Part shown: one piece after another, positions 26,274 through 57,343 of the stretch | How the letters are laid out: every line of letters starts with the position of its first letter | Numbering within the stretch: position 1 is the first letter of the stretch | Source of the DNA: Ruditapes philippinarum | Taxonomy: Eukaryota | Direction: 5' to 3' | NCBI RefSeq assembly: GCF_026571515.1 | Contig: NW_026852595.1 | Span: 62,001 to 126,000, forward strand | DNA length: 64,000 nt | Program-made: the position numbers and the translations under genes | The notes under the pieces: model-generated | Databases searched by the model: none | Told to the model about the DNA's origin: nothing | What the model saw: only the letters and a program-made list of their open reading frames with translations

Positions 26274-27273
26274 CTACATAGCGAGGTCAAAAGAAAAGAA
26301 AAGGCCCTGTGACCAACTCATCATAGTTTCTTTGCATTTCTTTATGACTGACGTCACTTGATATTCGTCAGCGATGCTCACGACCTGTAGGACATTTGTT
26401 TCTAGAGAGAAAAACAACAACAAAAAAAAAAAAAAAAACAGATAAAATGATTGAAAAGAAAATGCATTAGATGTATGAGATGTCAAGTAAATGGTTATGT
26501 GACATTCTGTTGACTCTTGATCTCTTGATATGAGTTACTATCATAGTCTTCCGTTTTTTATACCAAAACTTTCATCTTTTAAAATAACACCAGGCGGGGC
26601 AACGCTCGACTTCTTTTTCTTTTTAACGAGCAAACAAATAAAAGGTTTTAACAAATCTTTGAAAAATAAATTACATTAAAGAAAGAAAATTTCTTATGTT
26701 TTTTATTTTAATAGATCTGTCTCGTCGCTATTGTTGTTTTGTCCAAGTATAAAATCCTTTCGATAAATAAATGACAAAGTTAAGAAAACAAAAGAGCTAA
26801 AATGACCAGCACTCGCTCGCATTAAAATTGTTCTTAGAAGATATTTATTCATTAAATGGTCATTATCGTTTTTCCCAAAAATAAATTAATTTTTTGCAAT
26901 TATATTAGAATGTTATTATATAAAATAATTTATTAAATTCTGATCTTCTTTATATTTTATATGTGATATGTTTAAACTAACCTGTAATCGGTTTGGAAAT
27001 TCTCGGGTGAATGCATAGCAGAAATTCGAGAAAATCATCGTAATTTTTCCCTGTCAATGAAACGAGGTTTTCCTTTTTCTCCTGCCAGTCATGATCAAAC
27101 ATTGCCTTGAAAACAGGCGAAGCGTATCGTAGAAAGTTTTTCGAAACATAAAGTTTGTTGCTGTTATCAAACACCAACGTAATCTCATTATCAAATTCTC
27201 CACTTTCTGTAAATGCTTCAGTCATATCGAATATGTTTTTAATGCTATTTTCTAATCCCTCGTCACCGCTCAT
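26274..27273 (-). CDS. BTB/POZ gene copy A, C-terminally truncated (about 139 aa, open frame)
   Basis: Exons 26982-27273 and 26274-26401. BTB motifs ITLVF..LYVSKNFLRYASPVFKAMF..GKNYDDFLEFLLCIHP..ADEYQV..C. Homology to the paralogues ends at about 26305 because of a deletion. Confidence 0.8.
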
Positions 27274-27888
27274 TTTTAATAGTTTTAATTACTTCCGTTT
27301 TCAATTCAATTTTAACAGAAAGATACTGTTTATGAAAAACACATAAAAGGTATAAATTCAAATTTTATAAAGAAATTGAATTTTGTTCAAATCATCTGAA
27401 AAATTACTTCCGGTTTCAAATTGAACACCCCAGTATAATATCAAAGATTGACGGAAAGGACGAATAGTTGCGATTGAAAAAATCTATTTATATAATTATC
27501 ACTACAAATGCACTCAAGGTTGAATCCATGTTTGTTATAATAGGATATGAGTAAAATACCTGACTTGAAATTGATAGGTTAAAAGTTTAAAAATGCTGTC
27601 GTTATGTGACAAAGTTAAACAATCGTTATGGATTTATATTCGACTGCAAAATGGTGTAAAGGACTTTATGTCGAAAGCTTTTTAGTTGAAACTTCCTTAC
27701 TGATAGATAGTATATTTGTTTTTTAATAATAGTTCATAATATAGTTATATGCTGGTAATAAAGTTTGAATTGTATTCACTCATTGCTTTCTTAGAATTTT
27801 AAAAGCAGTTTTATAAACACTATTCTGTTACATTTTTTATATGAATACATGCATTATGATGATAAAGGTGTCTTTCAAAATAACAGTT

Positions 27889-28110
27889 ACCGCCTCCGTG
27901 GTCGAGGGGTTACAGTCGATGACTTCTTATCCAGTAACCTTTCTGGCGTGGGTTCGATCCCCGGGACATGCTTTGGTAGTTTGACACAGAGAAAGGTAGT
28001 CTAGTACTGATGTAACTCTCCAGTAACGATGATTAGGAAACTACTCGCCTATATGACTGAAATACTGTTGGGAAAAGGCCTAAAATGAAACAAAGAAACA
28101 AACAAACAAA
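27889..28110 (+). mobile_element. tRNA-derived SINE, second family
   Basis: A box ccgtggtcgagggg, B box gggttcgatccc, 3' atatgactgaaatactgttg plus (CAAA)n tail; flanked by aaa(a/t)taacag on both sides. Confidence 0.8.
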
Positions 28111-28794
28111 TTAACAGAAACAGTCACTTCTAACGACTATTTCACCTCATTTTTAAATTCTCTGTGAAAGGTATTTATACTTCATTATTGTCTTCTAGGC
28201 TTGATTTGTAAACGACACTCATTATGAAATGTCAGTTGTGCACTTGTATTTACAAATCGTATAGGAAAGCATATTCTGGGATTCAGGCGTTGATAATTTT
28301 TGCTTATTCATGATAATACGCGCTGTTTCATACTCAATCGTTTTTTGATAATATTAACTAATGTCGATAATATTAACTTCTGCCGAACAGAAGTACACAA
28401 AAATCGAGGCTAAGGAAAGCATTTTTATGGCCAATTCTATATTCCTTGATAACATGGTGAAGATCTGTGTCCTGGCGTTTAATAAGAATTTCCACTCTGT
28501 TGAAAATAGAATGACATTTCAACACCAGAACGTTTGATATAAATATAAGATCTCATGTTTATATTTAAACATCGGATCAAATCGATTTTGAAATCAATGC
28601 ACTTAAATATAAACTTTATGTTTTGAAGATACTACTGGAGTATTCTACGTATATTGACTAAAAATGCGAAAGCCTTTGATCTACAAATAAGCGCTAAGTC
28701 GCGATTTAGAAAACTGAATTTTGTTAAATAGATATCAACGATTATTACGTGCCATGAAAGGCATAATAGCAAGTAAAAGTTTAACATCTTTTTT

Positions 28795-29040
28795 CACAAG
28801 TGGTTAAGGTTGTTCACTTCAAACAACTTTAAAAGTTGCCCCTCAACTAAGTGGGTTCAAATCTCGTCAATGTCTTTCTTTTCTGGAAGCTATCCAGCTA
28901 GTTTATAAAACGTTGGTGGAACGACTAGTTCGTGCCGGAAATATTAGGCGTACGGAGCACTCGAGGTCTTCCTCCTCCAATTAAGCTGGAAAGTCGCCAT
29001 GTGACCTTTACTGTGTTTGAGCGACGTAAAACCTAACAGG
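28795..29040 (+). mobile_element. Decayed Meta-type SINE copy
   Basis: Similar to 1289-1580. Further decayed copies lie at about 25105-25310, 37770-37880, 42130-42350, 48980-49190, 49470-49590, 55010-55115 and 57985-58035; several were co-duplicated with the BTB units. Confidence 0.8.
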
Positions 29041-30792
29041 AAATGATATTAAGTTCATTCATAATATGCTTGTTGACAATATATGTTAAGAATTGTAAAT
29101 CTTTATTTCATTTTTGTAACTGAAACGCACGATCTTTGCTATATTTCTTGCAGGAACGATTTGTGATGAAATGTTTAGTGGTTTAAAGCGTTACGTTGTT
29201 TTCCGTTAGGTGACGTCCAGATAGATAACGATTGATAATTTGCAATATGAAATAACCAAATCCTATAGCACTGTTGTCATTAAAAACAATCTAAGGAAAA
29301 GGCAAGTATTACTTCGAGATAAAGTAAATGGAGATCTTGATTATTTTATCTTTCAAATGCTTATGACTTCGTTTCATTAAGGTTTATATTTTACTCAAGT
29401 TCATTTAGTGTAGGAAGAATTAGTATCGAGTGGAATTGTCACAAACACCAACATTAGGATTGACGGACACATATGCAATTCTTGTTACAACCTTGCCTTG
29501 CTATAAAGCGAACTGAAAGGAAAGATTGGTAGTCTCGCGGCAAGAAACAAACTGGATAGAGCAGATCCAGAACGATTTTTAGCAGCATTTATTTCGGTAG
29601 GGTTCATTGATAGTAGACGCTCGATGAGGTTTTCTATTTATTCATGCACGAGAGGAACATATTAAAAAAAAGAATTTACAAGACAAACAACAAGGAGCAA
29701 TATTTTACAACAGAAAATTCATAAATTACATATTTCACAATTACAATGATGCTTTGAATGCAATGTGTGAAGCAATCAGTTATTACGAAATGTTAAAGCT
29801 ATCCCAGAACCAAATCAGGTAAAAAAACTTTCGTGCAAAATCAATCATCTTTGCCTTTCAGAATGGAGAATTAAATACAGATGATAACAAAATAATAAAT
29901 ATAAAGGATATAGAGATTGAAATACTTTCTTCAAGTACAAAGCTCGGAATAGTGCGTAGGCTTCTGCGGGGTAAACAGTGTTCGGAATATTTCTCTTACG
30001 AAAAAAACCGTAGCTCTATTGTATTGCCAGGAAAGAGTCAAGAAAAAAGAAAAAGAAATCTTTATCAAGACACAAATCGAATACCATTCGGGCTGAATGG
30101 CAATTTCTAGCATTTTTGAAATTCCAATAGTTGTATTTTAAACTAAAATTTGTCGGATAACCATGTTATATGTTCCGGAAATATTTCGGTCCATTCTGTT
30201 ATGTGAACGGAATATGCATCGTGGATAACCGTCGGTTGTACTGAACTTATTAATGTCAATGATTAGTTAGCGAAACGTTTATCTATTGTTTAAGTGATGA
30301 TACAACTAAAAAAAATGTAATTATAAATGGGTAAAATAAAAAAAGTATATTGAACTACTTCTATATCTAACTGAGTGACAATTGAAATAAATGTCTAAAA
30401 TTATTCTGACGATATTGTTAATATGGTTGAATCACATATGTTCGATTCCTACAGCAAAAGTACAGACGTCTATTTTTACAATGGCTTTCGCTTTACTCTC
30501 AATACAATAGCCTCACGCCTTTCTTTCTGTCAGCTTTAATAAAACATTGCAAATAACACATTATGATAAAAGAAGTCTTGTTTCAAAATAATCTTCACTT
30601 TTCATATTATGGTAACATAATGCAAACATATGAAAAAAAACATATACATGTACTTTACTTTTCAAAATAATGAACGACAATGCATGCACATTTATTTATA
30701 TATTTATTCTTTAATTATCTATCACAAATGTGAAATTTGAAAATTATCTTAGCCAGTGTCAAATACCAGTATTTTATTTATGTCATTCACAT

Positions 30793-32073
30793 TTAGTATT
30801 TTAGGTTAGTTTCATCATTTAAATGAAGCAATCGTTCAGCTACTATTTTGTATTTAATTTCGAAAGGAAGGTTTTGAAACATTTTCATACAGTCCATTTT
30901 TATATCACCAAAAGTTTCATCTCCCGTTTTATCGGAAGGAGAAGGTTGGTTCTTAATGTGCATTTTTTGTGATTCTTTTTGTCCTGTATTATAAAGAATG
31001 TGTCCGAACTTTGCTATAGATTTTACTGCAAACTTCACTAAATCATTATAGCTTAATTCATGTACTTTTGCCACTATTCGAAGACAGGGTCTGAGGTATT
31101 CTGCGTGGTAGAGATAATGATTACCCTTTGCTCTCGCCTGATCAAATGACGCCTGTAACCAACTTATCATATATTCTTTGCACTTTTTTATGACTGATGT
31201 TACTTGATATTCGTCAGCAATGCTCACGATCCGTAGGACGTTTGTTTCTAGAAAAAAAAATTGTACCCAAAGTATAGACTATCTTTAAAAAAATGGAACC
31301 ACCGCCAGGCGGGGGCAACGCTCGACTTTATCTTTTTTAAGAGCAAACAAATAAACGGTTTAAAGAAATCTTCAAAAAGTAAATTAAAGAAAATAAATAA
31401 CATTTTTGCCTTTTTTATTGTTATAGGTTTGTCTCGTCGCAGTTGCTGTTTTGTCCAAGTATGAATCCTTTCGATAAATAAATGACAAAGTTAAGACAAC
31501 AAAAGAGCTAAAAATGACCAGCACTCGCTCGCATTTAAAAATTGTTCTTAGAATATATTTATTTATTAAATTGTCCTTATCGTTTTTTCCAAAAATAGTA
31601 AACTAACTTTTTGCAATAGTATTATTTAATAATCTATCAAATTCTGATCTTCCTTACATTTTACATGTGATATGTTTGAACTAACCTGTAATCGGTTTTA
31701 AAATCCTCGGGTGAATACAAAGCAAAAATTCGAGAAAATCGTCGTAATTTTTCCCTGGCAATGACACGCTGTTTTCCTTTTTCTCCTTGCAGTCATGATC
31801 AAACATTGCCTTGAAAACAGGTGAGGCGTATCTCAGAAAGTTTTTTTAAACATAAAGTTTGTTGCTGTTATCAAACACTAACGTAATCTCATCATCACAT
31901 TCTCCACTTTCTGTAAATGCTTCAGGCATATCGGTTATGTAACTACAGCTTGATTCTGGTTCCTTACTTTTTGTGAATGCTTCAGACATATCGGTGATGT
32001 TGATAGTTCTAATACTTGATTTCTCTTTTTCCATGACTTTTTCATATCTGCCAAATTCCTCGTCACTGCTCAT
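30793..32073 (-). pseudogene. BTB/POZ gene copy B, in-frame nonsense codon
   Basis: Exons 31686-32073 and 30793-31247. KLYV*KNFLRY: TAA at 31846-31848 replaces Ser and the frame is otherwise intact. Confidence 0.85.
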
Positions 32074-32827
32074 TCTTAATATTTCAATAAAGTCCCCTTG
32101 TCTATCTCAGTTGAATGAATATTATTGATGAATAATAAAACAATTTATGAATGCAAAATTCAAAGAGAAATTGAAAAAAAAACTTATCTGAAAATACTTT
32201 CGATTTCAAATATTTTTGGCTTTTCCAATCGTTCATTTTTCCAAACATTTACTCGGAACAACACGCAGACTATCATTAATAATATAAAAAAAATGTTTTA
32301 AAATGCCGAAAAGTTGTGATTGAAAAATATTTATTTATCAGTACAAATGTATTCATTCAATTTAAAGTTTATAGATTGTATTGATTTGTAACGGATATGT
32401 CTTGAAATTGATAGGTTCAAAACTTAAAAAGAATAATGCCAAGGCGTAATATGATCAAGTATAATATGTAAAACAATCGTTATTGTTTTATATCCCACTA
32501 AAATGGGTAGAAAATGACTATTTTTTAAATGGTTTGATAGCTTTTTAGTTTATTCAGCCTTGTAAAAAGTAATGTTTTTGTTTTTAGGTAGTAGTTCAGA
32601 ATGTAGATATGTTGTTTAAAAAAGTTAAAATTGTATTCACTCATTGCTTTCATAGAATTTTAAAACAATTTTATAAACACTATGCTGTAATATTTCTGAT
32701 AGGAATGCATGCATATTGATGGTATAGGTTCTATTTTAAACGAAAAAAATGCTTGACAGAAATATTACACAATTATTTAATATCAAAATAGCAACGCTCG
32801 TCGATACATTGTAATACAATGCACTCA

Positions 32828-33571
32828 TTAAATGAATCAATGTATAGTCTGATTTTATTGACCTGTCAATTTTGAGTACATTATAGCACTCATTTAAATA
32901 TTCACACCAGCTTAATGCATTGGCCATGTCAAATCCGCGATAGCACAGACGGTAGAGTGATTGTCTAATATATAAGGGGTGTGTAGTTCGATCCCTACTT
33001 TTGCCGTTGTTATAAGGCCTACTCTTTTTCTTTATTTTTGCAGCATATTTTCATGAAAATGGCCGGGTGCTTCCAATATTGTCTACACATATATGAATCA
33101 ACAAAGAAATATTCTCAATTTGTATAGTGTTTAACGCCATTGAAACGACATTTTCTAATTTTGATCCGAATTCATTATGAATTTTAATTCTGAAAGCATG
33201 TTATTTAAAAGGAGTTTAATTGCTAAACATATTTAATCAACACGAACAACATAACAAGCAATTATAGCTTCGATAATGTTGAAATATTTATAAGAAGAAA
33301 AAAACAACATTGGAGGTACGCGGTCTCGATCTCACAACACGTAGGACACTTAGAAATCATTAACCTGTAACTTACCCTATACCACTATACCGCTCAGTAT
33401 AATTGCTCCATAGGCACAAATTATATTTAATCAAATCTCACGGAGTACATCTCACGGAAATTACCGAAAATCTTTCGAAGATTAATATATTGTGTGCATT
33501 GACCGTGTAATTAGTATTAAATTGACAGGTTAATAAAACCAAACATTAACTACGTATGATACCACTCTTAA
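32828..33571. mobile_element. TTAA-flanked non-autonomous element with TIRs (Kolobok/piggyBac-like target)
   Basis: TTAA at 32828-32831 and 33568-33571. Subterminal inverted repeats ttttattgacctgtcaattt / aaattgacaggttaataaaa. Two internal tRNA-like segments. Confidence 0.6.
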
Positions 33572-34269
33572 ACACAGACTTTCAAAATAACAGAAAACAA
33601 ACAGATAAATAAATAAATTAATAAAACTCTTCTACTCTTACTCTTCTTTACATGCTTTAACGGCATTGTCGGAATATACACTACATGTATATTTAATATT
33701 AACCGATACTTGTACTGTGCCGCTATGATAATGTGAGAGTGACGTTGCATTTTTTTTTGTGTACACAAAAGTTTACAATCTTTATCGGAATAGGTAAAAC
33801 AGTTTATTTAGAAGCGAATAAAGTACAAGATAAAAAACTAAATGTCAACTTAATTTTACTCACGAGTTCGAGCCTCACAAGTTGTCTAACTTTGTCTTTT
33901 TTTTCACTATTTTTTCCCGATATTTCTAAAGATGCAAACGAATTGTAAAATACAGGTAGTTTTGTTATAATATTTTATAATTTAAATATACTTTATCCTG
34001 TGTAGTGAGTAGTATGCAGTAGTCGTTGTACTTGTGCAGTGCACGAGTATTTCGTGCCACTTGAACTTTAGTTTTAACAATTTGTGTACATGTATTCATT
34101 CTGTTTCTTATTCAGTATAAGGTTGTACCAACTTGCTAGATATCATTTTTGAAAAAAAGTGAAAAGGGAAGATAATAGAAATTAAAACAACACTTAACAC
34201 TTTCTTACGTCAAGAAAAAATCAAGTTTACTCGTATTTGATTGTTTATTGCTATTTGTGTTTACTTTTT

Positions 34270-37066
34270 TTTTGTCAATAGGCCAAGATTTTATCAATTA
34301 ATCGCTTCGATTTACAGCAAAAAATAAATTCGGATTCATGAACTCCTTCCGATTTCTATTATATTGGTTTCCCCTTCGGTGATTCGCAACATGTCATATT
34401 AATGGATGAGAACCGGAAAGCAGTTCTGCTGTACATGAATTCGAAAGCTATAAATAGCTATGTAGTAGGGCAGGTTGTTTCCCTTTCTTTGTATATAAAT
34501 AAATGTTCTGGTTTTTGACACTTAAGTTATAAATTTGTTATTTCCCTTTTTTAGTAGTACATGAAATTATAATTTGTTACATTTTGAATTACATTTACAC
34601 ACATCATATCAAGTATACTATTAGTGATTGAATTTGTCAATATAAAGAAGATTTCAGGTATAAGACTTTAATAATTTTACTTTTGATAATTATTCTTAAT
34701 TTATATTTACGAAACTAAATGTTTAAAATAACATGTTGATATATTGGGTTGTATAACTTTAGTATATAAGGCATCATTGGTAGCAAAGGTTACAAAGACA
34801 CGTTGCCGCCCCTTCTCCTATCTAACTTTATTAGGTGTTCTTTTATTAAAAGTAAATATATTTCTCATTGAAAGTTCTTTGATTTAAATTTGGTAATTAT
34901 TACAAATAAAAGGAAGAATTTATTGTTTGTCAGATAATTCATAGTTTGATAAATTGAAGTTTGTACATTTAAATAAAGAAAATTGTCATATATAATTCTG
35001 TATTAAACAAATTAGAACTGGAAACTTGGAGTTTTTGTTATTTCCTACAGTAAAGGTTCAGTATTATAGAGACGAAGTAAGTCCAACTTCAGGCTCTATA
35101 TAAAGCAGTAGCAGAAAAAGGGAGAGAAACTTGCGAAGCCAGGTTGTGAAAGTTTTGCAACCTGTCGCCTCGAAAAGTTGCCCTCTCCTACTACAGCTAG
35201 ATGACATTAACATTGTGAAAGTCGGACAATCTATTTATAGAAGTAGTTTTGGTCTAAACGAAATGGTCATTCGTGTCGCATTATGGTAATAAGTAACAAA
35301 CTTTTCGAAAACATTTAAGTAGGCCATTTTTTAGAAATATTATATTATAGTGTTATCATTTTGAAATTGTCTTTTCCGTAGGTGCTTTCCGGTACATAGC
35401 ACTTTTCTTTTTTACCGCCCTGATTGCTGATTGCACTTATGACATCTTTTTGAAATTCATCGCATTTTTTCATTCCAGAGTGTGTTCTATTTTCAGTATT
35501 GAAAGAAACCATTTTTTAATTTTACATAAAAAAGCATGTAATATTACTATATTATAATATAAGTCCCTTTTGTTACTATTTGTATATTTGATTCAGAGAT
35601 AATAATAAAAAAACAGATTTTGATATTTTTATCATCTAATGTTACTGACTACAGTAGTGACACAAACAGAACACAGTACAGCCATGTCACATTTACAAGT
35701 CGTGTAAGTCTTGTTTGTATTCAATGGAAACACTTTCCTTACCAGGTAGGCATCAGTGAAAGTATTATTTTAAATTAAATATCTAGCCTCTCTTTTTAAA
35801 TATGGACAGTGCATAAGATAAGTATAATTATGCAAAAAATGGTTTACAAAACATTCGGAAAAACATATCTACAATAGTACTTAATCAGAATATAACATGA
35901 CCTGTGCGTAGGAATAATTTGGTAAGATATCTGCAATAAGCACATTTTTTGTTTTGCGCGAAGCTTCTCAATTGCTGCATTGCAGCAACATTTGTACTTG
36001 TATACAGAAATTATTTCGCGAAAAAAGTACATTCCGAACCAGTCTGCATTGATTGCACCGCAGAGCTATTTGTGTTTACTATTTTTTTTGTCCATGGGCC
36101 TGGATTTGATCATTTAATTCATTCGATTTACAGCTAAAACTAAATCCGCATCCAAGAACTCCTTTCGATTTCTATATTGTTTTCCCCTTCGGTGATTCGC
36201 AACATGTCATATTAATGAATCAGAACAGGTAAGCAGTTCTGCTGTACATGAATTCGAAAGCTATAAATAGCTACATAGGTTATACATTTGTTATTTCCCT
36301 TTTTTAGTAGTACATCATATTATGATTTGTTACATTTTGAATTAATTTACACAAAGCATATCAAGTATACTATTAATGATTGAATTTGTCAATATAAAGA
36401 AGATTTCATGTATAAAACTTTAATAATTTTGCTTTTGATATTATATTAATAAACACTGTATCACCTTGTAACGCGTGTATAACAAACAAAAAATTCCTGA
36501 ATTTGGTCCTTTTGAAATTCATCCCATTTTTTTCATTCCAGAGTGTGTTCTACTTTCAGTATTGAAAGAAACCATTTTTTTTTAATTTGACATGAAAAAA
36601 CTGCCTGTAATATTAGTATATATTAATATTAGTCCCTTTTGTTACTATTTGTATATTTGTTACAATTATAATAATAAAAAACAGCAGACTTTGATATTTT
36701 TATCATATTATGTTACTGACTACAGTAATGACACAAACAGAACATAGTACAGTCATGTCACATTTACAAGTCTTGTAAGTCTTGTTTGTATTCAATGGAA
36801 TTACTTTTCTTACCAGGTAGGCATCAGTGAAAGCATTCTTTTATTTAAAATATCTTTCCCCTCTTTTTAATTATGGACAGTGCATAAGATAAGTCTAATT
36901 ATGCAAAAAATGGTTTACAAAACATTCGGGAAAAATCTACAATAGTACTTAATCTGAATATAACATGACCTGTGCGTAGGAATAATTTGGTAAGGTATAT
37001 GTAATGAGCGAATTTTTTGCGCGGAGCTTCTCAATTGCTGCATTGCAGCAACATTTGTACTTGTAT
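34270..37066. repeat. Local tandem segmental duplication
   Basis: About 34270-34690 matches 36095-36440, and about 35445-36003 matches 36508-37066, at high identity. About 750 bp is present only in the first copy. Confidence 0.9.
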
Positions 37067-40000
37067 TTATCTAGAAGATTAGATTAATTGGCAACCTTAC
37101 CTACTGCGTTACGCTGACAGTTGATTTATTTGTCGATATTCAAATTTATATCGCAAGCATGCGCGCCTTATGATAATAAACACAATATAATAACTGTTTT
37201 ACACCGCAGTAGTGGACATGACTGCCGCATCAATAAATAATTATCCTAAACGTACAGTAAGTGACGTTTACATTACAGCCGTGGTTCTAATAACGTGACT
37301 TGTAACTGTCATCTATTTATAGAACGATACTTGTACTTGTGTTTATTTTCGTAAATGACTACAAATAGATGCTGCTATAAAATGTTTTTTTTGAAATGTT
37401 TTATTAATACATTGTTTAAAATACAATATATCCTATGAACATATTTTGAACATCGTTCAACAATTTTGGAAAATGATTGACTAATCGAACTAGACCAATT
37501 ACAATATGCATGAATAAGGATTTACACAGTGTGCCGGTAATACTCATTTATGAACACTTGGAAATGACGTTTTCGACGAACTGATGTACTAGTACAAACA
37601 AACAATTATGTTGACGTATTAGTCATTCGACCGATGTTAGCTGGGAAAAGGCCTATTATCTCAACCTCGGATGGCTCGAACTACCGTTTTCTTGTTCTCC
37701 TCCGCTCGTAACATCAATTATTGCGGATATGATTATTTTGTTGTAATATTCTACTCAGGTGCACCTTTGTGCTTTAAGTAATGGACGGAGGTGCACCAAA
37801 GTTCTACTTCCACCAGGAAAGCTGAAACGTCGCGGTATTAACTATTTTGTGCTGGTGCGACGTAAATCCCAACAAAACAGTGACTTATGATAAGTCAATA
37901 CAATTTGGTCTAACATGTGAAATAAACAAAGGAAAAGAAGTAAGTATAAGCAAGTAATTAAAGCACACATATCGCAACAGTTGCCCCCCTTAAACTTGAT
38001 CTAAGTCTTCAGATATAAAAGTAATAGGTTGGTCTGTGACAAAGTAATATTACAAATGTTTTACTTTTTTTCCTAGTGTCTCACATAAAACATTTTTCAA
38101 TATTAATAATATTTTTAAAGTATATAAAAAATATTAACATTTATTTGATAAAGGTAAACAGACTACATTTAGAGTAACCACTTTTCCAAATTTAAAGCTG
38201 TTATATCAGAATATCAATCATTAAATCAAAATGTATGGGCAACACGAAAAGTACGTCAAGCAGAATGATAAAAACAGCATTTTCTTTTTAAAGGCACCGG
38301 ACACTTGAATATTTCTTGCATTTAATTCCTCTCTGTCACTCGAACATTTACAATTTTGCCTTATCGATGCATGAAGGTCCTGCAACTGAAAACATTCAAA
38401 TGCGCAATAAATCAAATCAGTTTAAAAGACCGAGATATCCAAACCGAATTTTTTAACACTATAAGGGCGATTTTTGAGTAACACTATGACACAGTTGATT
38501 TTTTTAGGCACATTTCTGATGTATTATATTATCTTAGACATCCCGTGATGTGAAAAATATGACATTCTATTAGGACATTGTCACTTTACCGGTTTATCTT
38601 CTGCAGGTCCTTTACACATCGCTTCTACTTAGCTGATATTTCCTTCTTTTAGGGATACATGAGAAATTATAAAAAAAACATAACTGGAGATCCTGACTAT
38701 TTTACCTTTACAATGCGTTTAGACTTTGTTTCAGGAAGATTTATATTTGACTCAATTCATTGAGTGTAAGAAGTATCGAGTAGAGTGGTCACAAATACGG
38801 ATATTAGGACAGACGGACACATATACAATTCTTGTTCCAATCTTGCCTTACTACATAGCGAGGTCAAAAGAAAAGAATAGTTGTCCCAGGACACAAACAA
38901 GCTTGATGAAGCAGATCCAGAACGATGTTTTTTTTAGGAGCATTAATTTCGGCTTAGCCAACGTAGTTAATGTAGTGGTAGAGCTCATTGACAGTGGACA
39001 CCCAAGGAGGTTGTGTTTTTATTCAGGTACTAGAAAACCTAATTATACAAAAAAGTGATTACAAGACGTATAACAAAGATAAATATCTTACAATAGAACA
39101 TTCATAAATTATTACATATTTCACAATTACAATGATGTTTTAAATACAATGTCAAGAAAAGTTAAAGCTATCCCAGAACCAAATCAGATAAAAATAACTT
39201 TTGTGCAAAATCGATCATCTAAGCCAGCCATTCAGAAAGGAGAATTAAATACCAGATGATAACTAAATGGACGACAAAACTAAAAAGGAGCGCCTACGGG
39301 GCACGCCATCCGCCATGTTTTCTGCCGGGTTACATATAGATTAAAATACTATCTTCAAATACAAAGATCGGAACCACTGAGTAGGCTTCTGCGGACTAAG
39401 CAGTATTCGAAAAACTTCTCTTGAGAAAAGAAACATTAGTTCATGAAGGAGTCTGAGAAAAGAGAAAAAGAACAAGAAGTATCTTTGAAAAATATACTCG
39501 GCCGAAGTAGAACTGATTAACGCCCCTCGTAAAAATCAGATAGCCTCGTGTTTACATGCGCTTTCTATTACTTGCACTGACATATAGATTTTAATGATAA
39601 GTAAGCTAAACGTTTTCTATTGTTTCAGTGACGATACAACTCAAAAATAGAATAAATTAAAATGGGTTACATGAGAATTTGTACTACTTCTATATTTAAC
39701 TGAGTGAACATTACTTAAATTAATATATCCTGAAGATATCGTTTAGCTTGTTTGAATCACTTCTGTTCAATTCCAACTTCCAGTACAGCCGTCATTCTAT
39801 TCTTTCATTTTATTCTCAAAACAAAAGCCTCCAGACTATTTTTTGTCAGCTGAAAAAAAACATGTCAAATGACACTTTATAATAAAAGAAGTTTAGTTTT
39901 AAAAAAATCTTCGCTTGTTCATATTATGCAAACATAAGAAAGAACTAAATTATGAACGACAATGCATGCACATTTATTTTATATTTATTCGTTGACTATT

Positions 40001-40078
40001 TATTTGTCAATAATGTCAGCTTTGACACTTATTCTAGCCAGTGTCAAATATCAGTGTTTTATTTTTTGTCATTTACAT

Positions 40079-41345
40079 TTAGTATTTAAGGCTAGTTTCA
40101 TCTTTTAAATGAAGCAATCGTTCAGCTACTATTTTGTACTTAATTTCGAAAGAAAGCTTTTGAAACATTTTCATACAGTCCATTTTTATATCACCAAAAG
40201 TTTCATCTCCTGTTTTATCGGAAGGAAAAATTTCATCCACATCGTACATTCTTTGTAAGTCTTTTTGTCCCTCATTATAAAGAATATGTCCAAACTTCGC
40301 TTAATTTTTACTGCAAACTTCACTACATCATTAAAGGTTAATTCATGTGCTTTTGCTACTATACTGAGACAGGGTCTGAGATATACTGCTTGGTAGAGAT
40401 AATGATTATCTTTTGCTCTCGCCTGATCGAATGACGCTTGTAACCATCTCATCATATATTCTTTGCATTTATTTATGACTGACGTCACTTGATATTCGTC
40501 AGCAATGCTCACGATCTGTAAGACGTTTGTTTCTACAAAAAATATATCCAACAAAGTATAGACTATCTTTAAAAAAACAGAAATCAACGCCAGGCGGGCA
40601 ACACTCGACTTCTTTTATTTTTTAAGAGCAAACAGATAAACGGTTTTAACAACTCTTTAAAAAGTAAAATAAAGAAAGAAACATTTTTTTCCCTTTTTTT
40701 ATTGTAATATGTCTGTCTCGTCGCAGTTGCTGTTTTGTCCAAGTATGAATCCTTTCGATAAATAAATGACAAAGTTAAGAAAACAAAAGAACTAATAACG
40801 ACCAGCACTCGCTCGCCTATAAAATTGTACTTAGAAGATATTTACCTTATCGTTTTACCCCAAAACGTTTTGTTATAGTATTAGGTACTCATTATATTTC
40901 ATAATTTATCAAATTCTGGTCTTCCTTACATTTTAAATGTGATCTGTTTGAACTAACCTGTAATCGGTTTTGAAATTCTCGGGTGAATGCAAAGCAAAAA
41001 TTCGAGGAAATCGTCGAAATTTTTCCCTGTCAGTGATACGCAGTTTTCCTTCTTCTCCTGCCAGTTATGATCAAACATTGCCTTGAAAACAGGCGAGGCG
41101 TATCGTAGAAAGTTTTTCGAAACATAAAGTTTGTTGCTGTTATCAAACACTAACGTAATCTCATCATCACATTCTCCACTTTCTGTAAATGCTTCAGGCA
41201 TATCGGTTATGTAACTAAAGCTTGATTCTGGTTCCTAACTGTTTGTGAGTGCTTCAGACATTCCGGTGATGTTTGAACATCTAAAACTTAATCCCTCATA
41301 TTCTGTGCTTTCCTCATATCTGTCAAACTACTCGTCACTGCTCAT
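40079..41345 (-). pseudogene. BTB/POZ gene copy C, multiple lesions
   Basis: Exons 40958-41345 and 40079-40532. Two in-frame TAGs lie before ATG 41201, and a 1-nt deletion at about 40302 shifts the frame of exon 2. Confidence 0.88.
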
Positions 41346-44156
41346 TCTTATAATGTCAATAATGTTCCCTTGTCTATCTCAGTTGAATGAATGTTATTGA
41401 TGAATAATAAAACAATTTATGAATGCGAAATTCAAAGAGAAACTGAAAAAAACTTATCTGAAAATACTGTCGATTTCAGAATTGTTAGTTTTTCCAATAG
41501 TTCATTTTTACAAAACATTTCACTCGGAACACCACACAGATTATCAATAGTAATATCCAAAATTGTTTTAAAGTGCCGAAAAGTTGCGATTGAAAAATAT
41601 CTATTTATCAGTACAAATGCATTCATTCAATCTGAAAAGTTTATAGATATATATTGATTTGTAACTGATATGCCTTGAAATTGATAGGTCCAATATTTAA
41701 AAATCATAATGCCAAGACGTAATATGATCAAGTATAATTATGTTAAACAATCGTCCAACTTAAATGGGGAGAAAATGACTTTATTTTTTTAAAAAGTTTG
41801 AGAGCTTTTTAGCTGAAATTTCCTTTTTGATTCAACCTTTTAAAAAAATAGTATATATGCTTTTAGGTAATAAGTTCAAAATATAGATATGTTTTTTGAA
41901 AAAAGTTAAAATTGTATTCACTCACTGCTTTCATAGAATTTTAAAAGCAATTTTGTAAACGCTATTCTATTACATTTTTTTGCTATGAATACATATATAA
42001 TGATGATAATTTTTATGTTTCAAAAGGGATATTTCACAATATTTCATTAGAAGCATACCAACAAGTTTAAATGTACATCCCTTTTTCAGAATTGAAGAAA
42101 GTGACATACGCTGTTCAGATCATGAGGTATGGTAGATTGCTTAAAGTTGCTCATTTCAAAAAACTAAAAAAACTTGCCCCTTCCCTTTTTGGGTTCAAAT
42201 ATTGCAAAGGACTTTATATTCTTCTTGTAAAGAAGCTATCCAGTTAGGAAATGGACTGTCAGAACACTCATGACTTGTGACCTTATGTGTCGGAAATAAT
42301 GCAGAGAGGGAAAATGAGGTCTACCTCTGCCAGTCAAGCAGACAGGTCTTGTTATAAATAGTTCTTAAGAAATGTAAATATTTCGTTCATTTTATTAACT
42401 CAAGTAACCTTATCATTGTTGTTTTCTTGCTGTTATCGTGTACATTTAACTTACGAAGAAGCAATTTCTTAAGAAATGTTAAGTCGTTTAAAGCTTGATC
42501 TACGTTGCTTACAGATAAATTATAATAATGATAATTTAACTATGATATTACAAGAAATGTCGACTTTCCAAACATTAACGAGAAATCAAGTATTACTTAA
42601 ACTTAATTTTAAAAATAAAAACATATTTTCCCCTACCAGTGTTTTAAATCATGTATCTAAACGCATCATGACATATTATTTAGTAATCTTAAGCTGTTAA
42701 TAATTAGTGTAAATACACTTTGCTCTAAGACTAAAAACAATCAAAGACAAAAGGCGACAGTATAAGAAAGTCACTATAATGCACTTATCACAACATTGTC
42801 CCCTGACACGATGTGCATGAAATGATCGTAGAACAGAAACAAGAATTTCACGTGCGTCAGATATTAAGTTAAGAGAGTTAAACACTCACCTTTAGATAAA
42901 GTTATAAAAGGTTGGTTTGTCTACTCAGTAGTGACAAATTAGTAATACAAATGCTTTACATCTATGAACGGTGTCTCAAAAAAATGAATGTTTCAATATT
43001 ATGATATGTTTATACATTTATAAAATATTTACATTTACTTGCACTAAAGATAAACGATATACATTTAGTTACCATTTCTAAAAATTCAAAGCTTACTTCA
43101 CGGAATATATATACTTTAGCAAAATGAAAGGGCAATGCAAAAGGTACGTCGAGCAGAATGAATTAATTAACCATTTTCTAGACACTTGGAAAAGTCTTGC
43201 ATTGAATTAGTATGTATCGCTCGAATATTTACAATTCGTGACAATTTGGTCTAATAAAGGGTCGATAAATACAATAAATAATCGATAAAGGGTCATGTAA
43301 ATACAATAGACTTTATCCGGAATTAAGAACACTTTTTTATTTTCAAAGCTATTTCGTTGACGTTTTTTCCTGTAAACAAAGTATACTTGATGCGAAACGT
43401 TGTATATTTTTCAAATAAAATAATTACATTTTTAAATTGAAACTGGAGTTGATTTCTATATTCAAACTTACATGAAAGATATTTCGGGGCACTTTTACAG
43501 CTACATCATAACCCTGGTCATATTTCAAGCTAAGTTTAAATCGGAATACTGATCATAAAATATAATATAATTAATCAATCATTTTTATAGCAATAAACTA
43601 CTACAAATATCAAAACCAAAGCAATTTATTCGATTTTTAAGTTTAGGTTTTAAAGTTTTATGTTTAATCATATCGTTTTGTTTTTATTATTTCTAAACAA
43701 AAAGAAAGATATAATGCCACATTTGAACATAAGGCAAAACATTAACAATTATATCTACAACATTTAAATTGATGTTGTACTTGTTCATAAAAGTAAAACA
43801 AAAGGGTTCGTGTTTTAACATTAGCATTTGAAATTTATTTGTCAATATTTAACCGAGCGAAAATTACGTTAATTGAAATAAATATCCATTGTTATTATGA
43901 CGATATCTTAAGTATGCTTGAATCATATATGCTCAATTCCAACTTGAAACACAAGTCTGTTCTTACAGTGGTTTTCAATTATTCAGGGAACACCTGCCTT
44001 TTTTTGTCAGCTTTAAAAATTAGCATACATTTAGACTTTACTGTTTAAAAAACAGTGAACGACAATACATGTACATTTATTTATAATGATAATTTATCTA
44101 TCAAGCAAAATGACTGCAAGAAAACAAATTATCCTAACTAGTGTTTTTTCTGTCAT

Positions 44157-47003
44157 TCACATTAAGTATTTAAGGCAGCTTTTACCATCGTACCGTAGTA
44201 AACGTTCAGCTAATATTTTATATTTAATTTCGAAAGAAAGATTTTTAAACATATTCATACAGTCCTTCATTATATCACTTAAAGATTCATCGCCTTCTTT
44301 GTAAAACGGATTAGGCTCGCCGAAATAGGCAGAACCATCTTGTGCTGATGGATCTGTGTTTCCTTCATTATAAAGAATGTGTCCAAACTTTGCTATGCTT
44401 TTAACGGCATACTTTACAACGGCATCATAGCCTAATTCATGTGCTTTTGCTACTATACGAAGGCAAGGTCTAAGCCATACTGCTTGGTGGAGATAATGAC
44501 ATCCGTTTGGGTTTGGTTGTTTGATGGGATTCTCCAACAAAACCATCATAACTTCCTTGCATTTGTTTATGATTGATGTTACCTGATATTCGTCTGCAAT
44601 TTTCACGAGCCGTAGGACGTTCTTTTCTAGATAAATATGACGAAAACAATCAAATCAAGTATGTCAAATGGAAAGTAATGTGACAGTTTATTGTCATATG
44701 TTACAAAAAATTGTTCAATTCTTCAAGTTGTGAGTACCCAATCTCTACACTGCCCTCTAAAATATAAAGAGTGGCATTCGACAACATTAAGAAATAAGGT
44801 ACACAGTATATAAACGAATTGTACCCCAACCGGATCTTGTGAGAAGATTTCAACATCAGTTCCTTACAAACAGGCGGGATGACTCATAAAACATTTAAAG
44901 ACGGCTTGCATTCATTCTGTGAAGTTTTGTAAACATTTGAATCATATTAAGAAAGAGTTTATCTTTGCTTATATATGCATCCATAACCTGCTTTGTTAAA
45001 TATATGCGCATAAAACGCTGTGCTTTCGCTTTTTGTCAACACACGCCGGTTACACAAGCAAATTTATGCCTACACAAGCAAATTTATGCCTTAAATTGTT
45101 TTACCTCACTTTAACTCATATCTGAATCTTAACTTTATTGTCTTTACCTCATGTTACCGGACAGACACTTGTATACATATATTTGAATCTTGATAAAACT
45201 TAGTAAATAATAGAGGCGAACTTTCTGATACCTTTACTGTACCAGTCTTGCTAAAACAATTTTAATTTGTTTTTTCACTGAACCATAACTTGCGAGCTAT
45301 TGTTGATGATTTTTACTGTTTTTGTCCTATGTCCCATATTTTATCGTGCAGAATATGAAGCTATTGTGCCACAAGAGCATGAAAACATCAGTGGCCAATA
45401 CTGCACAAGAATGGAGCTTCATCATGTTTTCACTGTCTATGGAAACGATGTAGAAATAAAGTGATAAATACTACAAAATCAGTCCTTAATCGCATATGAC
45501 ACGTAAATTATTCGTAAAATCACAAATCTTTTTACTTTTCTTAAAATTAAGTACATTTTGATTACCAGATAATTTTCTTGAAATATTTTGGCTTATCTGG
45601 AGGCATGTAAAATAAATCTTTTTAAGGAGTTTCCTGCATATTGTTGTTAAATGTCTAAAAGGTAGTTTACACTCTTACAAGTTTATTTCCACTTATTTTC
45701 AAATAATTTAAATTCTTGCCAGTGTATACATAAGGTAACTTGTTAGTTTTCTTTTCACACAGCTTAAACAGTTTATCATTGGCTATAGTTATCTTAAGAC
45801 AAAAGATACATATAAATACAGTTCCTTTCTATAAATTGCCATATACATGTATTTCAGATTGATTTGGATGAATCATTTGAAGTAAGGGTCTTGACAGTAG
45901 CTTAGTGTAACAAACACCCAAAGCACGCCCATGAAAACACAAAATGAATGTTGGATCTGTGGGATAAGTGGTGACACCAAGTTTAATCATGATAAATGTT
46001 TTCTCCAATGTTATCCCGACAGGGACTTTGGATTCTTTCATGTGAGTAAGCTATTCAGCTAGCTTACGGAACGCCGGTGGTTCTACTCAGGTGCCTGTTC
46101 GTGCCTGAAAAAATGCACGGAAGGGCACCTGAGGTCTTCCTCCACCAGTAAAGCTGGAACGTCGCCAAATGACCTATACTGTGTCGGTGTGACGTTAAAC
46201 CCAAACCGAACAAACAAACAGCAATATTTGTTGCAGATGAATAATTTTCATTTGTTATTGATAACTTATTGATATCACAACCAGATGTTTAACTAAATAA
46301 ACCATGAAATATGACGGATTTTTGTTCCTGTTTAGTACTGACCACCTGAAAGTTATTCGTAAGTTTTGATTATTTAATAGCCTAAATGCTAATATTTATA
46401 TTTTGCATAACTGAGACGTTTAATAAAGTTTCTCTTCTACGATATAAATATAGACATACTGCCCTAACGTCCATGAGTATCAACATAAATACCAATATAT
46501 TAAACAAGTTAAGCGGCAGACAATGGCTGACACTGATTTCTTCTCACAAGATCCGGCTGGGGTTCAAATCGTTTATATACTGTGAGGTATGTAAGCTATC
46601 TAGAAATGCTATATGAAGTATTTATTCATTAAACTATCAGTATCTTTTACCCAAAAAACAAAGCTTACTTTTTGCCGTAGTATTAGATAGTCATAATATT
46701 TTATAATTTAGCAAATACTAAACTTCTTTAAAAAGTTCATTTGATCTTTTTAAACTAACCTGTTATTGGTTTTAAAATCCTAGGGTGTACACAAAGCAAA
46801 AATTCGAGGAAATCGTCGTATTTTTTCCCTGGCAATGATACCCTGTTCTCCTTCGTCTCCTGCCAGTCATGATCAAACATTACCTTGAAAACAGGCGAGG
46901 CGTATCGTAGAAAGTTTTTAGAAGCATAAAGTTTGTTGCTGTTATCAAACACCAACGTAATCTCATCATCACATTCCCCACTTTCTGTAAATGTGCTGGA
47001 CAT
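44157..47003 (-). CDS. BTB/POZ gene copy D, apparently intact (about 237 aa)
   Basis: Exons 46760-47003 and 44157-44626, phase-1 GT-AG intron, no stops. BTB domain followed by a helical C-terminal region; most divergent paralogue. Confidence 0.85.
46014..46220 (+). mobile_element. 5'-truncated young SINE in the intron of BTB copy D
   Basis: Near-identical to the reverse complement of 1325-1505; (CAAA)n tail. Confidence 0.92.
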
Positions 47004-47187
47004 GTTAGTTTCCCAAATTTTTGTGAATGCGTCAGACCTATCGGTTATGTTTTTTACTGAAAAGACTCTTTTGGCTCATACCAACCATTTTGATTAAATT
47101 ATTTTGTTAATATTTGTTAATAACAAATAATATATAAATGCAAATTCCAATGAGAAATTTGAAAATTTTTCAAATTATTTGTAAACT

Positions 47188-47199
47188 ACTTTCGGTTTC
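47188..47199 (-). promoter_or_regulatory. ISRE/IRF-E-like element upstream of BTB copy D
   Basis: GAAACCGAAAGT on the minus strand. Positional homologues at 27406-27417, 32196-32207, 41466-41477 and 54214-54225. Confidence 0.55.
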
Positions 47200-52992: not shown

Positions 52993-54076
52993 TTAGTACT
53001 TTAGGCTAGTTTCATCATTTAAATGAAGCAATCGTTCAGCTACTATTTTGTACTTAATTTCGAAAGAAAGGTTTTGAAACATTTTCATGCAGTCCATTTT
53101 TATATCACCAAATGTTTCATCTCCTGTTTTATCGGAAACAGAAGGTTCGTTTCCATAGCGCGTTCTTGGTGATTCTTTTTGTCCATTATTATAAAGAATG
53201 TGCCCAAACTTTGCTATAATTTTTACTGCAAACTCAACTACATCATTATAGCTTAGTTCATGTGCTTTTGCTACTATCCGAAGACATTGTCTGAGATATT
53301 CAGTTTGGTAAAGATAATGATATCCCTTTCCTCTCGCCTGATCTAATGAAGCCTGTAACCAAGTCATCATAGTTTCTTTGCATTTTTTTATGACTGACGT
53401 TACTTGATATTCTTCAGCAATGCCCATGATCCGTAGGACGTTCGTTTCTAGAAACAACAAGAAAAAAGCTCTAGATTATATGATGAAAACAGACGCATAA
53501 GATGTATCTGTGATATTCCGTTGGCAAATGATATGAATGATTGTCATATGCTTTCATTTTTATACCCAAGCTTTCAAGTACCTTTCAAAATAAAATGATC
53601 AGCTCTCGTTCGCATTTATATTTGTTCTTAGGTGAAATTTATTCTTTGAATTGTTCTTATCGTAATAAATTAACTTCTTGCTGTAGTATTAGTCATTATT
53701 CTTGATAATTTATCAAATACTGATCTTCCTTACATTTTAAATGTAAAATGTTTGAACTAACCTTTAACCGGCTTGGAAATCCTCGGGTGAATGCAAAGCA
53801 GAAATTCTAGAAAATCGTCGTAATTTTCCCTGTCAATGATACGCTGTTTTCCTTCTTTTCCTTGCAGTCATGATCAAACATTGCCTTGAAAACTGGCGAG
53901 GCGTATCGTAGAAAGTTTTTCGAAACAAAAAGTTTGTTGTTGTTATCAAACACCAACGTAATCTCATCATCACATTCTCCGCTTTCTGTAAATGCTTCAG
54001 GCATATCGATTTTGTTTATACTGCTATTTTCTAATTCCTTGACTTGACTTGACTCTAATTTCTTGTCACTGCTCAT
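52993..54076 (-). pseudogene. BTB/POZ gene copy E, single homopolymer frameshift (possibly intact)
   Basis: Exons 53762-54076 and 52993-53447. T4 at 53824-53827 where the paralogues have T5; otherwise open. Confidence 0.8.
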
Positions 54077-56273
54077 TCTTAATTGTTTTTAATTACTTCC
54101 GTTTGAATTTAAGTTTAATAGAACGTAAATGTTGATGAACAATAGATGATTAAAGTGTAAATTCATGTTTTAAAACAGAAATTTGAAAGTTTTTTCAAAT
54201 TATCTGAAAAACTACTTTCGGTTTTAAAAATCTCAATCGGAATACCTTAGCATAATATCAAGGATCGAAAAGTTGCGTTTGAAAAAAGTCTATTTATATC
54301 CTTATCAGTGTTAACTCGTACCACTTGACAAGGTAATAAAATAGTTTTTAATGTATTAATATGTAACATTTCTGACTTGATGGGTTCAATACATGTATCG
54401 TAACAAAAATGCTGAATGTACATACGTAATGTGATAAAGTATAACGGAATGTTGTTTTTGATCCGAAAAAAGGTTTATTATTTTAAAAGTTTGGAGAGCT
54501 TGTAAGCTGAAACTTCCTTATTGATTCAGCCCTAAAGAGAAAATATATTTGATTTTTATGTAAATATTCACTTAAAGAAGAGTGATATGTTGATTCTATC
54601 AATGCAATTACCAAACAAATATCTGGTTACGATTTTGATAAGAATATGCACAATTTATTATAAACATTATAATTGTATTGATTTAAATCACATGTATACA
54701 TATCTTTTTTATTGTTTTCATAATAAGTAATTCTACATGTATTTCTAATAACTAATTGACTAAACGTTCTCATCGTAGTAATAAATATAAAAAAGAGCTG
54801 TAGAAACGTGTATTTTATATATATATTGTTTAGGTTATTAATAGAAATGAGACTTTACACTGTCTTAATACTATTTTTTATTTTGCTCGATTCAGGGTGC
54901 CAATGGTTTTGATAACGCGACATGACACTTGTTTTTCTACGCTCTTAATATCCAAAATTGCCAATTGGAATTTGAACCCGGTATATAATTATACTGTTGT
55001 AACAATACTCACGTGTCCGTTTATGACTTAAGTAATTGACGGAGGTGCACCCAATGTCTTTCTGGAAAACCGCCATATGAACTATATTGTGTTGGTGTGA
55101 CGTGAAACCCAACCAACAACAAAAATACTGACAATACAATTTGATCTAGCATGTAAAATAGATAAAGACAAAGGGGCTGTATAATAAAGTTACTATAATT
55201 CACTGGTCACGACAATTGTCTCACTTGTAGAAATATGTTAAAGTTTGATCTTAGTAGAGAAATCTGTAACAGGGGCAGGAATTTCGCATATCTTCAGGTA
55301 TAAAACATGAATACAGTTATGTTGAATACAGTTGATCTATGACGTGTTTTACGTTTACATAATACTTTTTTCAATATTAATTATATGTTTAAAATATGAA
55401 AACAAATGTATATACATTAATATGATAAAGGTAAACAGAATACATTCAGAGTAACAACTTTTATCAATTCAAAGCTTTTGAAACGGAATATCAATCACGT
55501 ACTTTTTGTGTTGCAAAACGTAAGGGCAAAGAGATACATGAGAAATTAAAATGCCTTTGATTGAAATCTTGACTATTTTACCTTCAAAATGCGATTAGAC
55601 ATGGTTTCGGTTAGTTTTATATTAGACTTAAGTTCATCGAGTGTAGGAGGTATCGTGTAATGGACAGAAACATGGACCTTAGAACAGAACCTCTACATTA
55701 TACAATTCTTGTTTCACCCTTGCCTTACTACATATCGAAGTTGAAGGGAAAGATTGGTAGTCCCAACGCTCAAATGTGCTGGATAGGGTTGTTCAAGAAC
55801 GATTGGAAACAGATTATTTCGGTTTTGCCGACAAAGTTAATGTAGTGGTGGGTTTTTTTACAATAGACACTCTATGAGGTTGACTATTTATTCAGGTACT
55901 AGAAGAATCTATAACAAATTAAATGATTGTAAGACATTTACCAGAGAGAACTATTTTACAATAGAAATTTCATTAATTACATATTTCACAATTAAAAAAA
56001 TACTATACATGTAAAAACATTATAAACATTTCACATTTCAAATTAAAGTAAATGTATACATACAACGTTTAATGTAGAAAATCACTTAAAGCTTTATCAG
56101 TTATAATATGAATCTATCAGCCTAAATACTATTAATTAATTAATTAATTTTGAATGATTAACATAATTAATTAATTAATGTTTTTTATTTTAATTTATTT
56201 CATCATTTCTATTGTATGGCGACTGTCAAGTTATCTTAGGCAGCGTCAACATAATTGTGTTCATTTACATTAA

Positions 56274-57343
56274 TTATTTAACACTGCCTTCATCATTCAA
56301 AAGAAGCAATCGTTCCGCAAATATTTTGCATTTAATTTCGAAGGAAAGGTTTTGAAACATATTCATACAGTCCATCTTTATATTACCAAGGGTTTCATCT
56401 CCTGATTTATCGGAATGATTAGGGCCTAATACAATAAGAATTTTTTCTTGTTGTCCCTTATTATAAAGAATGTGCCCAAACTTTGCTATAGTTTTTACTG
56501 CAAACTTCACTACATCATTATAGCTAAGTTCATGTGCTTTCGCTATTATAGGTAGACAGGGTCTGAGATAAACAGCTTGGTAAAGACAATGACCTCCTTT
56601 TCCTTACGCCTGATCAAATGAAGCCTGTAACCAAGTCATCATCAATTCTTTGCATTTCTTTGTAATTGAAGTCACATGGTATTCGTCAGCAATGGTCACG
56701 ACCTGTAGGACATTTGTTTCTAACAACAACAAAAATCCCAGATAATATGATGAAAACAGACGCATAAAATGTGTGAGATGTTATGTAAATGGTTCTGTGA
56801 TATTCCGTTGACAAATGATATGAATGATTGTCATATTCTTCCATTGTTATACACACTTTCAACTATCTTTCAAAATGAAAATGACCAGCTCTCGCTCGCA
56901 TTTAGAATTGTTCTTCATTAAATTGTCCTTATCGATTTCCCCAAAAATAGTCAACTAACTTTTTGCAATAGTATTAGGTACTCATTATATTCAATAATCT
57001 ATCAAATTCTGATCTTCCTTACATTTTACATGTGATATGTTTGAACTAACCTGTAATCGGTTTAAAATTCCTCGGGTGAATACAAAGCAGAAATTCGAGA
57101 AAATCGTCGTAATTTTTCCCTGTCAATGATACGCTGTTTTCCTTCTTCTCCTTGCAGTCATGATCAAACATTGTCTTGAAAACAGGCGAGGCGTATCGTA
57201 GAAAGTTTTTAGAAACATACAGTTTGTTGCTGTTATCAAACACTAACATAATCTCATCCTCACATTGTCCTCTTTCTATAAATGCATCAGACATATTAAT
57301 TATGTTTTTACTGCTATTTTTCTATTTCCTCGTCACTGCTCAT
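56274..57343 (-). pseudogene. BTB/POZ gene copy F, disrupted
   Basis: Exons 57051-57343 and 56274-56719. A +1 frameshift at about 57317-57321 (alternative ATG at 57294) and a TAA at 56604-56606 (FDQA*GKG). Confidence 0.85.

Follow-up and report, generated by a model that had tools for sequence, protein, structure and literature searches.

A tandem array of six BTB genes in Ruditapes philippinarum: members of a possible MATH-less BTB-BACK family of putative CUL3 adaptors

Cullin-adaptor families with a fast turnover occur in nematodes and plants, where they are thought to be defensive. In the accessible part of one report, the F-box, BTB and MATH adaptors of nematodes are described as evolving by birth-and-death, and an immune role is speculated for them (PMC12951971, citing Thomas 2006). 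A molluscan case, according to the part of the source that is available, is BTBD6, a Cul3-adaptor BTB family that is tandemly expanded in deep-sea vent snails, with 56 and 35 copies, and whose expansion has been read as neural (PMC7736800); BTBD6 is given as a BTB-BACK-PHR protein in the available part of another report (10.1101/575910). For Vibrio-challenged Ruditapes, the accessible part of one study reports a BTB-zinc-finger gene only, and its supplement text (1,483 characters) held no match to BTB or MATH (PMC9125321). Here we describe an array of six BTB genes of Ruditapes philippinarum, located at 26274-57343 of a window of 64,000 nucleotides (contig NW_026852595.1, positions 62,001 to 126,000; "the window" is this whole stretch). 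We regard it as an evenly balanced question whether the array belongs to a MATH-less, BATH-38-like BTB-BACK family that evolves by birth-and-death and whose members are putative CUL3 adaptors.

Self-comparison and six-frame reading placed six minus-strand BTB genes, G1 to G6, head-to-tail in this region. Each has two coding exons separated by a single phase-1 intron at the identical codon position, with the donor AG/GTTAGT, the acceptor TAG/AA and a size of 314-2133 nt. Most of the BTB domain is encoded by exon 1. In the five copies scanned (G1, G3, G4, G5 and G6), exon 1 matched PF00651 (BTB) with 28-36 bits, the cut-off being 20.5, and the BTB domain in exon 1 of G2 was assigned by its alignment identity of 83-91% to the other copies; the paralogue P0005 scored 53 bits with the same model. 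BTB and a helical part fill both coding exons. The shared intron site and the BTB domain in all six copies bear out the head-to-tail two-exon genes of the preliminary description, which had been made from the letters of this DNA. A tblastn search of the whole 64-kb window with 41 relatives brought up no further copy.

These 41 relatives were obtained by an alignment search from 2187 candidate proteins. At E<=0.001, a profile search of the full library gave 7298 matches, the list of which was limited to 150. Thirty matches were looked up, and the named full-length family members among them came from Ruditapes, Mercenaria and Mya, in agreement with the molluscan origin proposed earlier. Two members carry automatic names, 'BTB and MATH domain-containing protein 38-like' (XP_060585970, Ruditapes) and BAT38-like (WAR19341, Mya), and most of the Mercenaria members lie on one 97.8-Mb sequence. 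The nearest relatives outside the family included clam BTB-MATH proteins and a MATH-BTB protein of Caenorhabditis nigoni. Pfam showed no MATH domain in the full-length family members scanned. Of the 189 proteins fetched, 68 matched a profile of the post-BTB part at E<=0.001; all 68 have 309 aa or less, and 53 of them had gone into building the profile. None of the remaining 121 matched at this threshold, fused forms having had no separate search. Within the BATH-36/38-like BTB clade, the family is best read as a branch without MATH. Open-licence literature, searched with five LOC ids included, yielded no published description of it; the LOC ids themselves were not found, and the matches were limited to three nematode papers that name bath-38.

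In a tree of 48 rows, whose deep nodes are unsure and have long branches, the six window copies formed a clade with LOC132745177 and the Logan protein P0008 (support 100/97), the P0008 cluster also containing LOC132745176. Other one-species clades were seen in Ruditapes and Mercenaria, next to lineages shared by the two genera. From these sequence relationships the array appears to be a recent burst in the Ruditapes lineage, a product of birth-and-death within an older clam family of ~240-residue proteins; family copy number rests on protein databases. Birth-and-death turnover, which had been suggested before, agrees with the one-species clades in two genera and with the broken copies in the window. 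A distant family member, P0027 (LOC132718191; ~35% identity), lies outside the window, and the BTB cluster may extend beyond it.

The part behind BTB had earlier been called unassignable to any known domain. An AlphaFold2 model of P0005, built with 13 sequences, consisted of BTB and five further helices (predicted local distance difference test score, pLDDT, 80; predicted template modelling score, pTM, 0.77), with a low-confidence stretch at 193-208 that corresponds to the variable loop considered below. Foldseek aligned this model with the BTB-3-box/BACK parts of SPOP and KLHL3 over 140-147 columns at 2.4-2.6 Å, the alignment running through the 3-box (SPOP BTB-BACK 4j8z, 145 columns at 2.4 Å; KLHL3/Cul3 4hxi, 140 at 2.6 Å). 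In the VIA search SPOP was ranked first (Z 13.7, root-mean-square deviation (rmsd) 5.7, 193 aligned) and the BTB-BACK part of vaccinia A55 third (Z 12.6, rmsd 4.2, 167 aligned). The C-terminus alone, modelled from exon 2 of G5 with 54 sequences, gave a confident helical bundle (pLDDT 85.9), with SPOP 283-367 as joint second match (Z 7.6, rmsd 2.7, 84 aligned) and KBTBD4 144-252 also matched (Z 6.5, rmsd 2.0, 77 aligned). A BFVD search returned BTB and BTB-kelch matches only. The ESM Atlas yielded leads only, namely unnamed clusters (0.91-0.92) and clusters of BTB/BACK type (0.87-0.90). On the predicted fold and the position behind BTB, the best reading of the C-terminus is a divergent 3-box/BACK-like bundle.

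The available part of an earlier study describes the phi-x-D/E motif as the key Cul3 contact, together with M233 and A227 of SPOP (10.1101/461806). The family profile aligned gap-free to the alpha3-beta4 loop of KEAP1. With the register set by this alignment and by the A227/M233 spacing, 42 of the 45 family rows carry the motif, among them those of all six window copies, and E stands in 44; this count takes C as hydrophobic (6 rows) and excludes the three distant ones of the 48 rows. The motif, together with a predicted fold like those of SPOP, KLHL proteins and A55, supports as likely the resemblance to CUL3 adaptors that had been proposed, and the intact members probably bind CUL3, as judged from sequence and model. 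A homodimer prediction of P0005 residues 20-250, run without an alignment and without folded controls, scored 0.22 against a mark of 0.32.

Intact members would contact cullin-3 through the phi-x-E loop and the 3-box, and would act as substrate adaptors of low abundance, probably restricted to particular tissues or stimuli. In proteins having neither MATH nor Kelch, the partner might be held by the BACK bundle and the free loop, or reached through BTB-BTB pairing, and then be passed on for ubiquitylation. The copies would be redundant enough for null alleles to arise and persist in different copies across haplotypes, the set being renewed by duplication and probably by gene conversion in exon 1. 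For such an adaptor family, defence would be one plausible context.

How constraint is distributed along the protein was judged on G2-G6. BTB identity was 76-91% (83% pooled), and the two helical blocks behind it reached 81% and 76%, so that the earlier term 'nearly invariant' is too strong for BTB. The description of a variable C-terminus applies to a loop of ~20 codons (37% identity) and a linker of 20 codons (59%); the helical blocks are as constrained as BTB. By counting, the ratio of nonsynonymous to synonymous divergence (dN/dS) was 0.25 in BTB, 0.20 and 0.26 in the helical blocks, 0.46 in the linker and 1.05 in the loop; the terminal helices gave 0.19-0.34, and codon models gave 0.27-0.28 outside the loop, at a synonymous divergence (dS) between copies of ~0.3-0.5. 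On these ratios the array protein looks like a constrained protein with one free loop, rather than a conserved BTB domain joined to a diversifying one. In G4 the loop lies at 44298-44366 (minus strand, 23 codons), between the BACK-like helices and with low pLDDT in the paralogue models, and it has 18-20 codons in the other copies. In the JGI fragment P0007, a G2-like exon 2 product, 11 residues are tandemly duplicated where this loop starts.

A possible though doubtful account is that these genes encode anti-pathogen CUL3 adaptors induced by interferon regulatory factors (IRFs), with the loop as a recognition surface under diversifying selection and the null alleles reflecting changing pathogens. 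It would fit the very low basal RNA depth reported below, and also the birth-and-death of nematode BTB, MATH and F-box genes, for which the accessible text speculates on an immune role (PMC12951971). Codon likelihood on one whole-gene tree gave the loop a dN/dS of 1.6-1.7 (p 0.007-0.034), and the site model M2a was preferred over M1a (p 0.004-0.014). However, both signals lost significance in per-exon fits: with exon 2 fitted alone the loop had a dN/dS of 1.25-1.44 (p 0.14-0.35 in all 15 topologies), and M2a per exon gave p 0.20-0.45. dS was lower in exon 1 than in exon 2, most clearly in G4 (0.26-0.35 vs 0.42-0.54), which suggests gene conversion, a process that can create a whole-gene signal of positive selection. 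The loop was also picked after seeing the data, contains indels and is of low confidence in both models, and the selection tests, made on five or six sequences, have little power. Counting with an assumed kappa of 2 placed the loop interval above 1 in two of eight intervals and was superseded by the likelihood fits; a star-tree codon model was set aside because shared changes were counted repeatedly. The diversifying substrate-binding domain of the preliminary description was not supported: purifying selection acts on the folded C-terminus, and the loop signal is lost per exon. A BACK-like C-terminus under such selection is close to what had been named beforehand as speaking against a defence role.

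The same account draws on a motif resembling the interferon-stimulated response element (ISRE) upstream of the genes. This motif corresponds to one orthologous site, 120-150 nt upstream of the ancestral ATG, to which we applied what we take to be ISRE consensus patterns. It fits GAAANNGAAA[GC][TC] exactly in two of the six copies, G2 (32196-32207, minus strand, as are all the sites) and G4 (47188-47199). The orthologous site of G5 (54214-54225) has one mismatch in the first half, that of G1 (27406-27417) has GGAA as its second half, presumably ETS-like, that of G3 (41466-41477) has a broken second core, and in G6 the first half is deleted. The strict consensus was matched three times in the 64 kb against 1.0 expected, two of the matches being at the upstream site. 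As the site is shared by descent, the copies are not independent evidence; moreover, in conservation it ranked 31st among 269 windows of 12 nt upstream of the genes, and scores as high were reached by 19 of the 193 windows in introns. What had been described as a shared ISRE-like motif stands as one inherited site, exact in two copies and not outstandingly conserved. Conserved words further upstream are, we presume, GATA-like and TATA-like. On the side of IRF control, bivalve IRFs bind and activate ISRE, according to the accessible parts of two reports (PMC5557890, PMC13524488), which would make such control plausible here.

Read evidence came from four of 24 runs, X1 (DNA), X15 (presumed RNA), and X21 and X23 (raw RNA); runs X18-X20, with shares of 0.05-0.07, were outside this set. 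An X15 contig covers the ISRE-like site of G4, so that the site may be in the 5' untranslated region. Behind the motif there is a conserved TTTTCAG, which was considered as a branch point or splice acceptor; in G4, which is without that AG, one X15 contig passes through this place unspliced. Both exons of G4 and of G5 were covered by X15 contigs at a depth of 2-14, intergenic contigs being present too. One X15 contig ends exactly at the G4 donor, and the 77 letters left unplaced would, with splicing, just fill the distance to the next contig, which is indirect evidence. On a contig of 955 nt, P0008 runs through the exon junction without a break, as expected of a spliced transcript. No splice joint at the BTB intron was present among the 15 of 180 joints listed, and X21 (20,000 records) was dominated by repeats.

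In this assembly one copy is open, one is truncated and four are disrupted. G1 (26274-27273; exon 1 26982-27273, exon 2 from 26401; LOC132718386, P0030, 100%) has a deletion that truncates exon 2 after ~32 codons; the sequence joined there corresponds to ~1.5 kb further on in G3, and 25619-26303 matches 38191-38880 at 93%. G2 (30793-32073; exon 1 31686-32073, exon 2 30793-31247; RefSeq LOC132718096, P0002, 100%) has a single in-frame stop at 31846-31848, within BTB, and the P0002 model begins at a Met past that stop. G3 (40079-41345; exon 1 40958-41345, exon 2 40079-40532; RefSeq LOC132718107, P0010) has, besides two stops ahead of the Met at 41201, a frameshift of one base near 40301, and the P0010 model reproduces the frameshifted tail. 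G1, G2 and G3 are already present in RefSeq for Ruditapes philippinarum as 'uncharacterized' models. G2 (31974-32073) and G3 (41246-41345), both on the minus strand, contain an internal repeat of the N-terminal 'ITDM.EAFT' segment, which provides several alternative start codons able to bypass early lesions.

G4 (44157-47003; exon 1 46760-47003, exon 2 44157-44626) is the sole open frame in the array, the most divergent copy and the one with the 2133-nt intron, which contains repeats. It encodes 237 aa from the ATG at 47003, and no full-length match to this protein was found among the protein-database relatives retrieved. The frame depends on the downstream ATG at 47003, the ancestral one at 47079 being out of frame, so that G4, described earlier as intact, is so in its open frame and not in its ancestral start. 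G5 (52993-54076; exon 1 53762-54076, exon 2 52993-53447) has lost one base in an A run near 53825. G6 (56274-57343; exon 1 57051-57343, exon 2 56274-56719) has a frameshift near the first ATG, with the second ATG (57294) in frame, and its exon 2 contains a stop at 56604-56606.

This tally, taken in the preliminary description as frequent gene death, is right for the assembly, but the lesions are not fixed. The base missing at the G3 frameshift is present in the DNA run X1 (single covering contig, depth 26.6/26.6), and the JGI fragment P0004 reads through exon 2 of G3, with an identity of 100% to one half and of 98.6% to the other. For G5, P0033 and P0003 represent exon products without a break (98-100% identity). 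Conversely, frameshifts that the window copies do not have are carried by P0001 (97.5% identical to G4) and by the G1-like P0037, both of which run into a shifted frame at their end. P0006 is without the G6 stop but has 87% identity to G6, and it may be a paralogue. A metagenome scan for the DNA source of the JGI fragments gave 535 pattern matches and 0 confirmed relatives. Copy status varies by haplotype or assembly: either null alleles segregate or some lesions are assembly errors, and a tally of fixed gene death is weakened either way. Tallies of this kind, taken from one assembly, can mislead.

These lesions also bear on mostly neutral turnover, an explanation that we hold to be conceivable but unlikely. 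It supposes a duplication-prone locus in a highly polymorphic genome, with one or two functional copies that keep a non-immune job (gonad, stress or development), the others being decaying surplus and the loop an unconstrained linker. Five of the six copies are broken here and G4 is without the first ATG, the loop dN/dS is indistinguishable from 1 per exon, and repeats fill the array spacers and the G4 intron; a neural interpretation of the BTB expansion in vent snails, as given in the accessible part of that report, points the same way (PMC7736800). However, the copies diverged under purifying selection before breakage (dS ~0.3-0.5, dN/dS ~0.27), most of the lesions amount to one or two events, and G3 and G5 appear unbroken in other sources.

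Several observations weigh against a family of BTB-BACK adaptors of CUL3. The C-terminus alone, confidently modelled as a bundle, gave no Foldseek match at E<=0.001, its matches in the other search were mostly generic helical bundles, the best of which (Z 9.9) was a designed protein, and the Pfam BACK models matched no family member scanned; the BACK call rests partly, therefore, on the position behind BTB. At the position equivalent to D278 of SPOP, D was present in 11 of 45 rows and E in 27. X21 had a depth of 0-1 over the G5 and G6 bins and of 0 over the bin of G4 exon 2, and the depth of X23 was <=0.08 over the exon bins, apart from the repeat-bearing G3 bin. Finally, unbroken or differently broken versions of the copies are known from protein fragments and one DNA contig, and may be paralogues or assembly errors.

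It is quite improbable that the proteins carry no substrate of their own and, by binding CUL3 or forming heterodimers with BTB-MATH and other BTB proteins, titrate or retune other cullin-3 RING ligases (CRL3): the CUL3 motif is kept in the absence of MATH and Kelch, related BTB-MATH proteins are encoded by Ruditapes and Mercenaria (P0087, P0091) and BTB heterodimerisation can bring a BTB protein to Cul3, in the available part of one report (10.1101/575910), but this gives no reason for many old sub-lineages in two genera or for the conserved terminal helices. Returning to an adaptor family that recognises substrates, a bolder and rather unlikely form of it is that clams have IRF-inducible minimal CUL3 adaptors, in which a BACK loop of ~20 residues replaces MATH as the recognition surface and the working sets differ between animals through segregating nulls.

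Other features of the window were also recorded. Between G2 and G3, 34250-37066 is a local tandem duplication (88-92% identity) with no BTB content. The G4 intron contains, at 46019-46202, a very high-copy short repeat (depth >500,000 in X1 contigs) with other copies at 1324-1505 and weaker ones in the spacers; older copies in most spacer units may have been duplicated along with the genes. On the plus strand, 5957-9151 is an unbroken frame of 1064 codons with endonuclease and reverse-transcriptase domains (Pfam), apparently an intact open reading frame of a non-long-terminal-repeat (non-LTR) retrotransposon. Also on the plus strand, 21078-23620 has intron-split or broken frames with a Cys-rich stretch and a motif of the HADNC...QNKN type, which we take to be DDE transposase-like; three pieces scanned gave no Pfam match. 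A decayed non-LTR element with fragmented reverse-transcriptase and endonuclease-like frames lies at 60278-63414 (minus strand).

A compact BTB-BACK-only family in farmed clams, with working copies that vary by haplotype, would be a simple test case. The array poses two questions: can a CUL3 adaptor that has neither MATH nor Kelch choose its targets, and is a ubiquitin-based response driven by bivalve IRFs? Without induction, the array would be an ordinary unannotated gene cluster. Compared with the BTBD6 expansions of vent snails, it is likewise tandem and molluscan, and differs in that those belong to another BTB family and to gastropods. With the BATH-38-like and nematode MATH-BTB adaptors it shares the BTB clade, the tandem clusters and birth-and-death; in contrast to them, the clam family is without MATH, its 38-like name has been transferred by similarity, and no folded binding domain showed robust positive selection. 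SPOP, KLHL3, KBTBD2 and KEAP1 have a BTB-3-box-BACK part of the same predicted fold, helix order and phi-x-E loop, whereas the clam proteins have ~20% identity to them, no MATH or Kelch, longer first helices, a variable insertion ahead of the last two helices and, in the model, no helix before the BTB core. The vaccinia A55 protein, a viral BTB-Kelch protein, is matched in its BTB-BACK part both by structure and by profile (E 5.6e-06 over positions 19-161), and the clam proteins differ from it in being host-encoded and in ending naturally after the BACK-like part.

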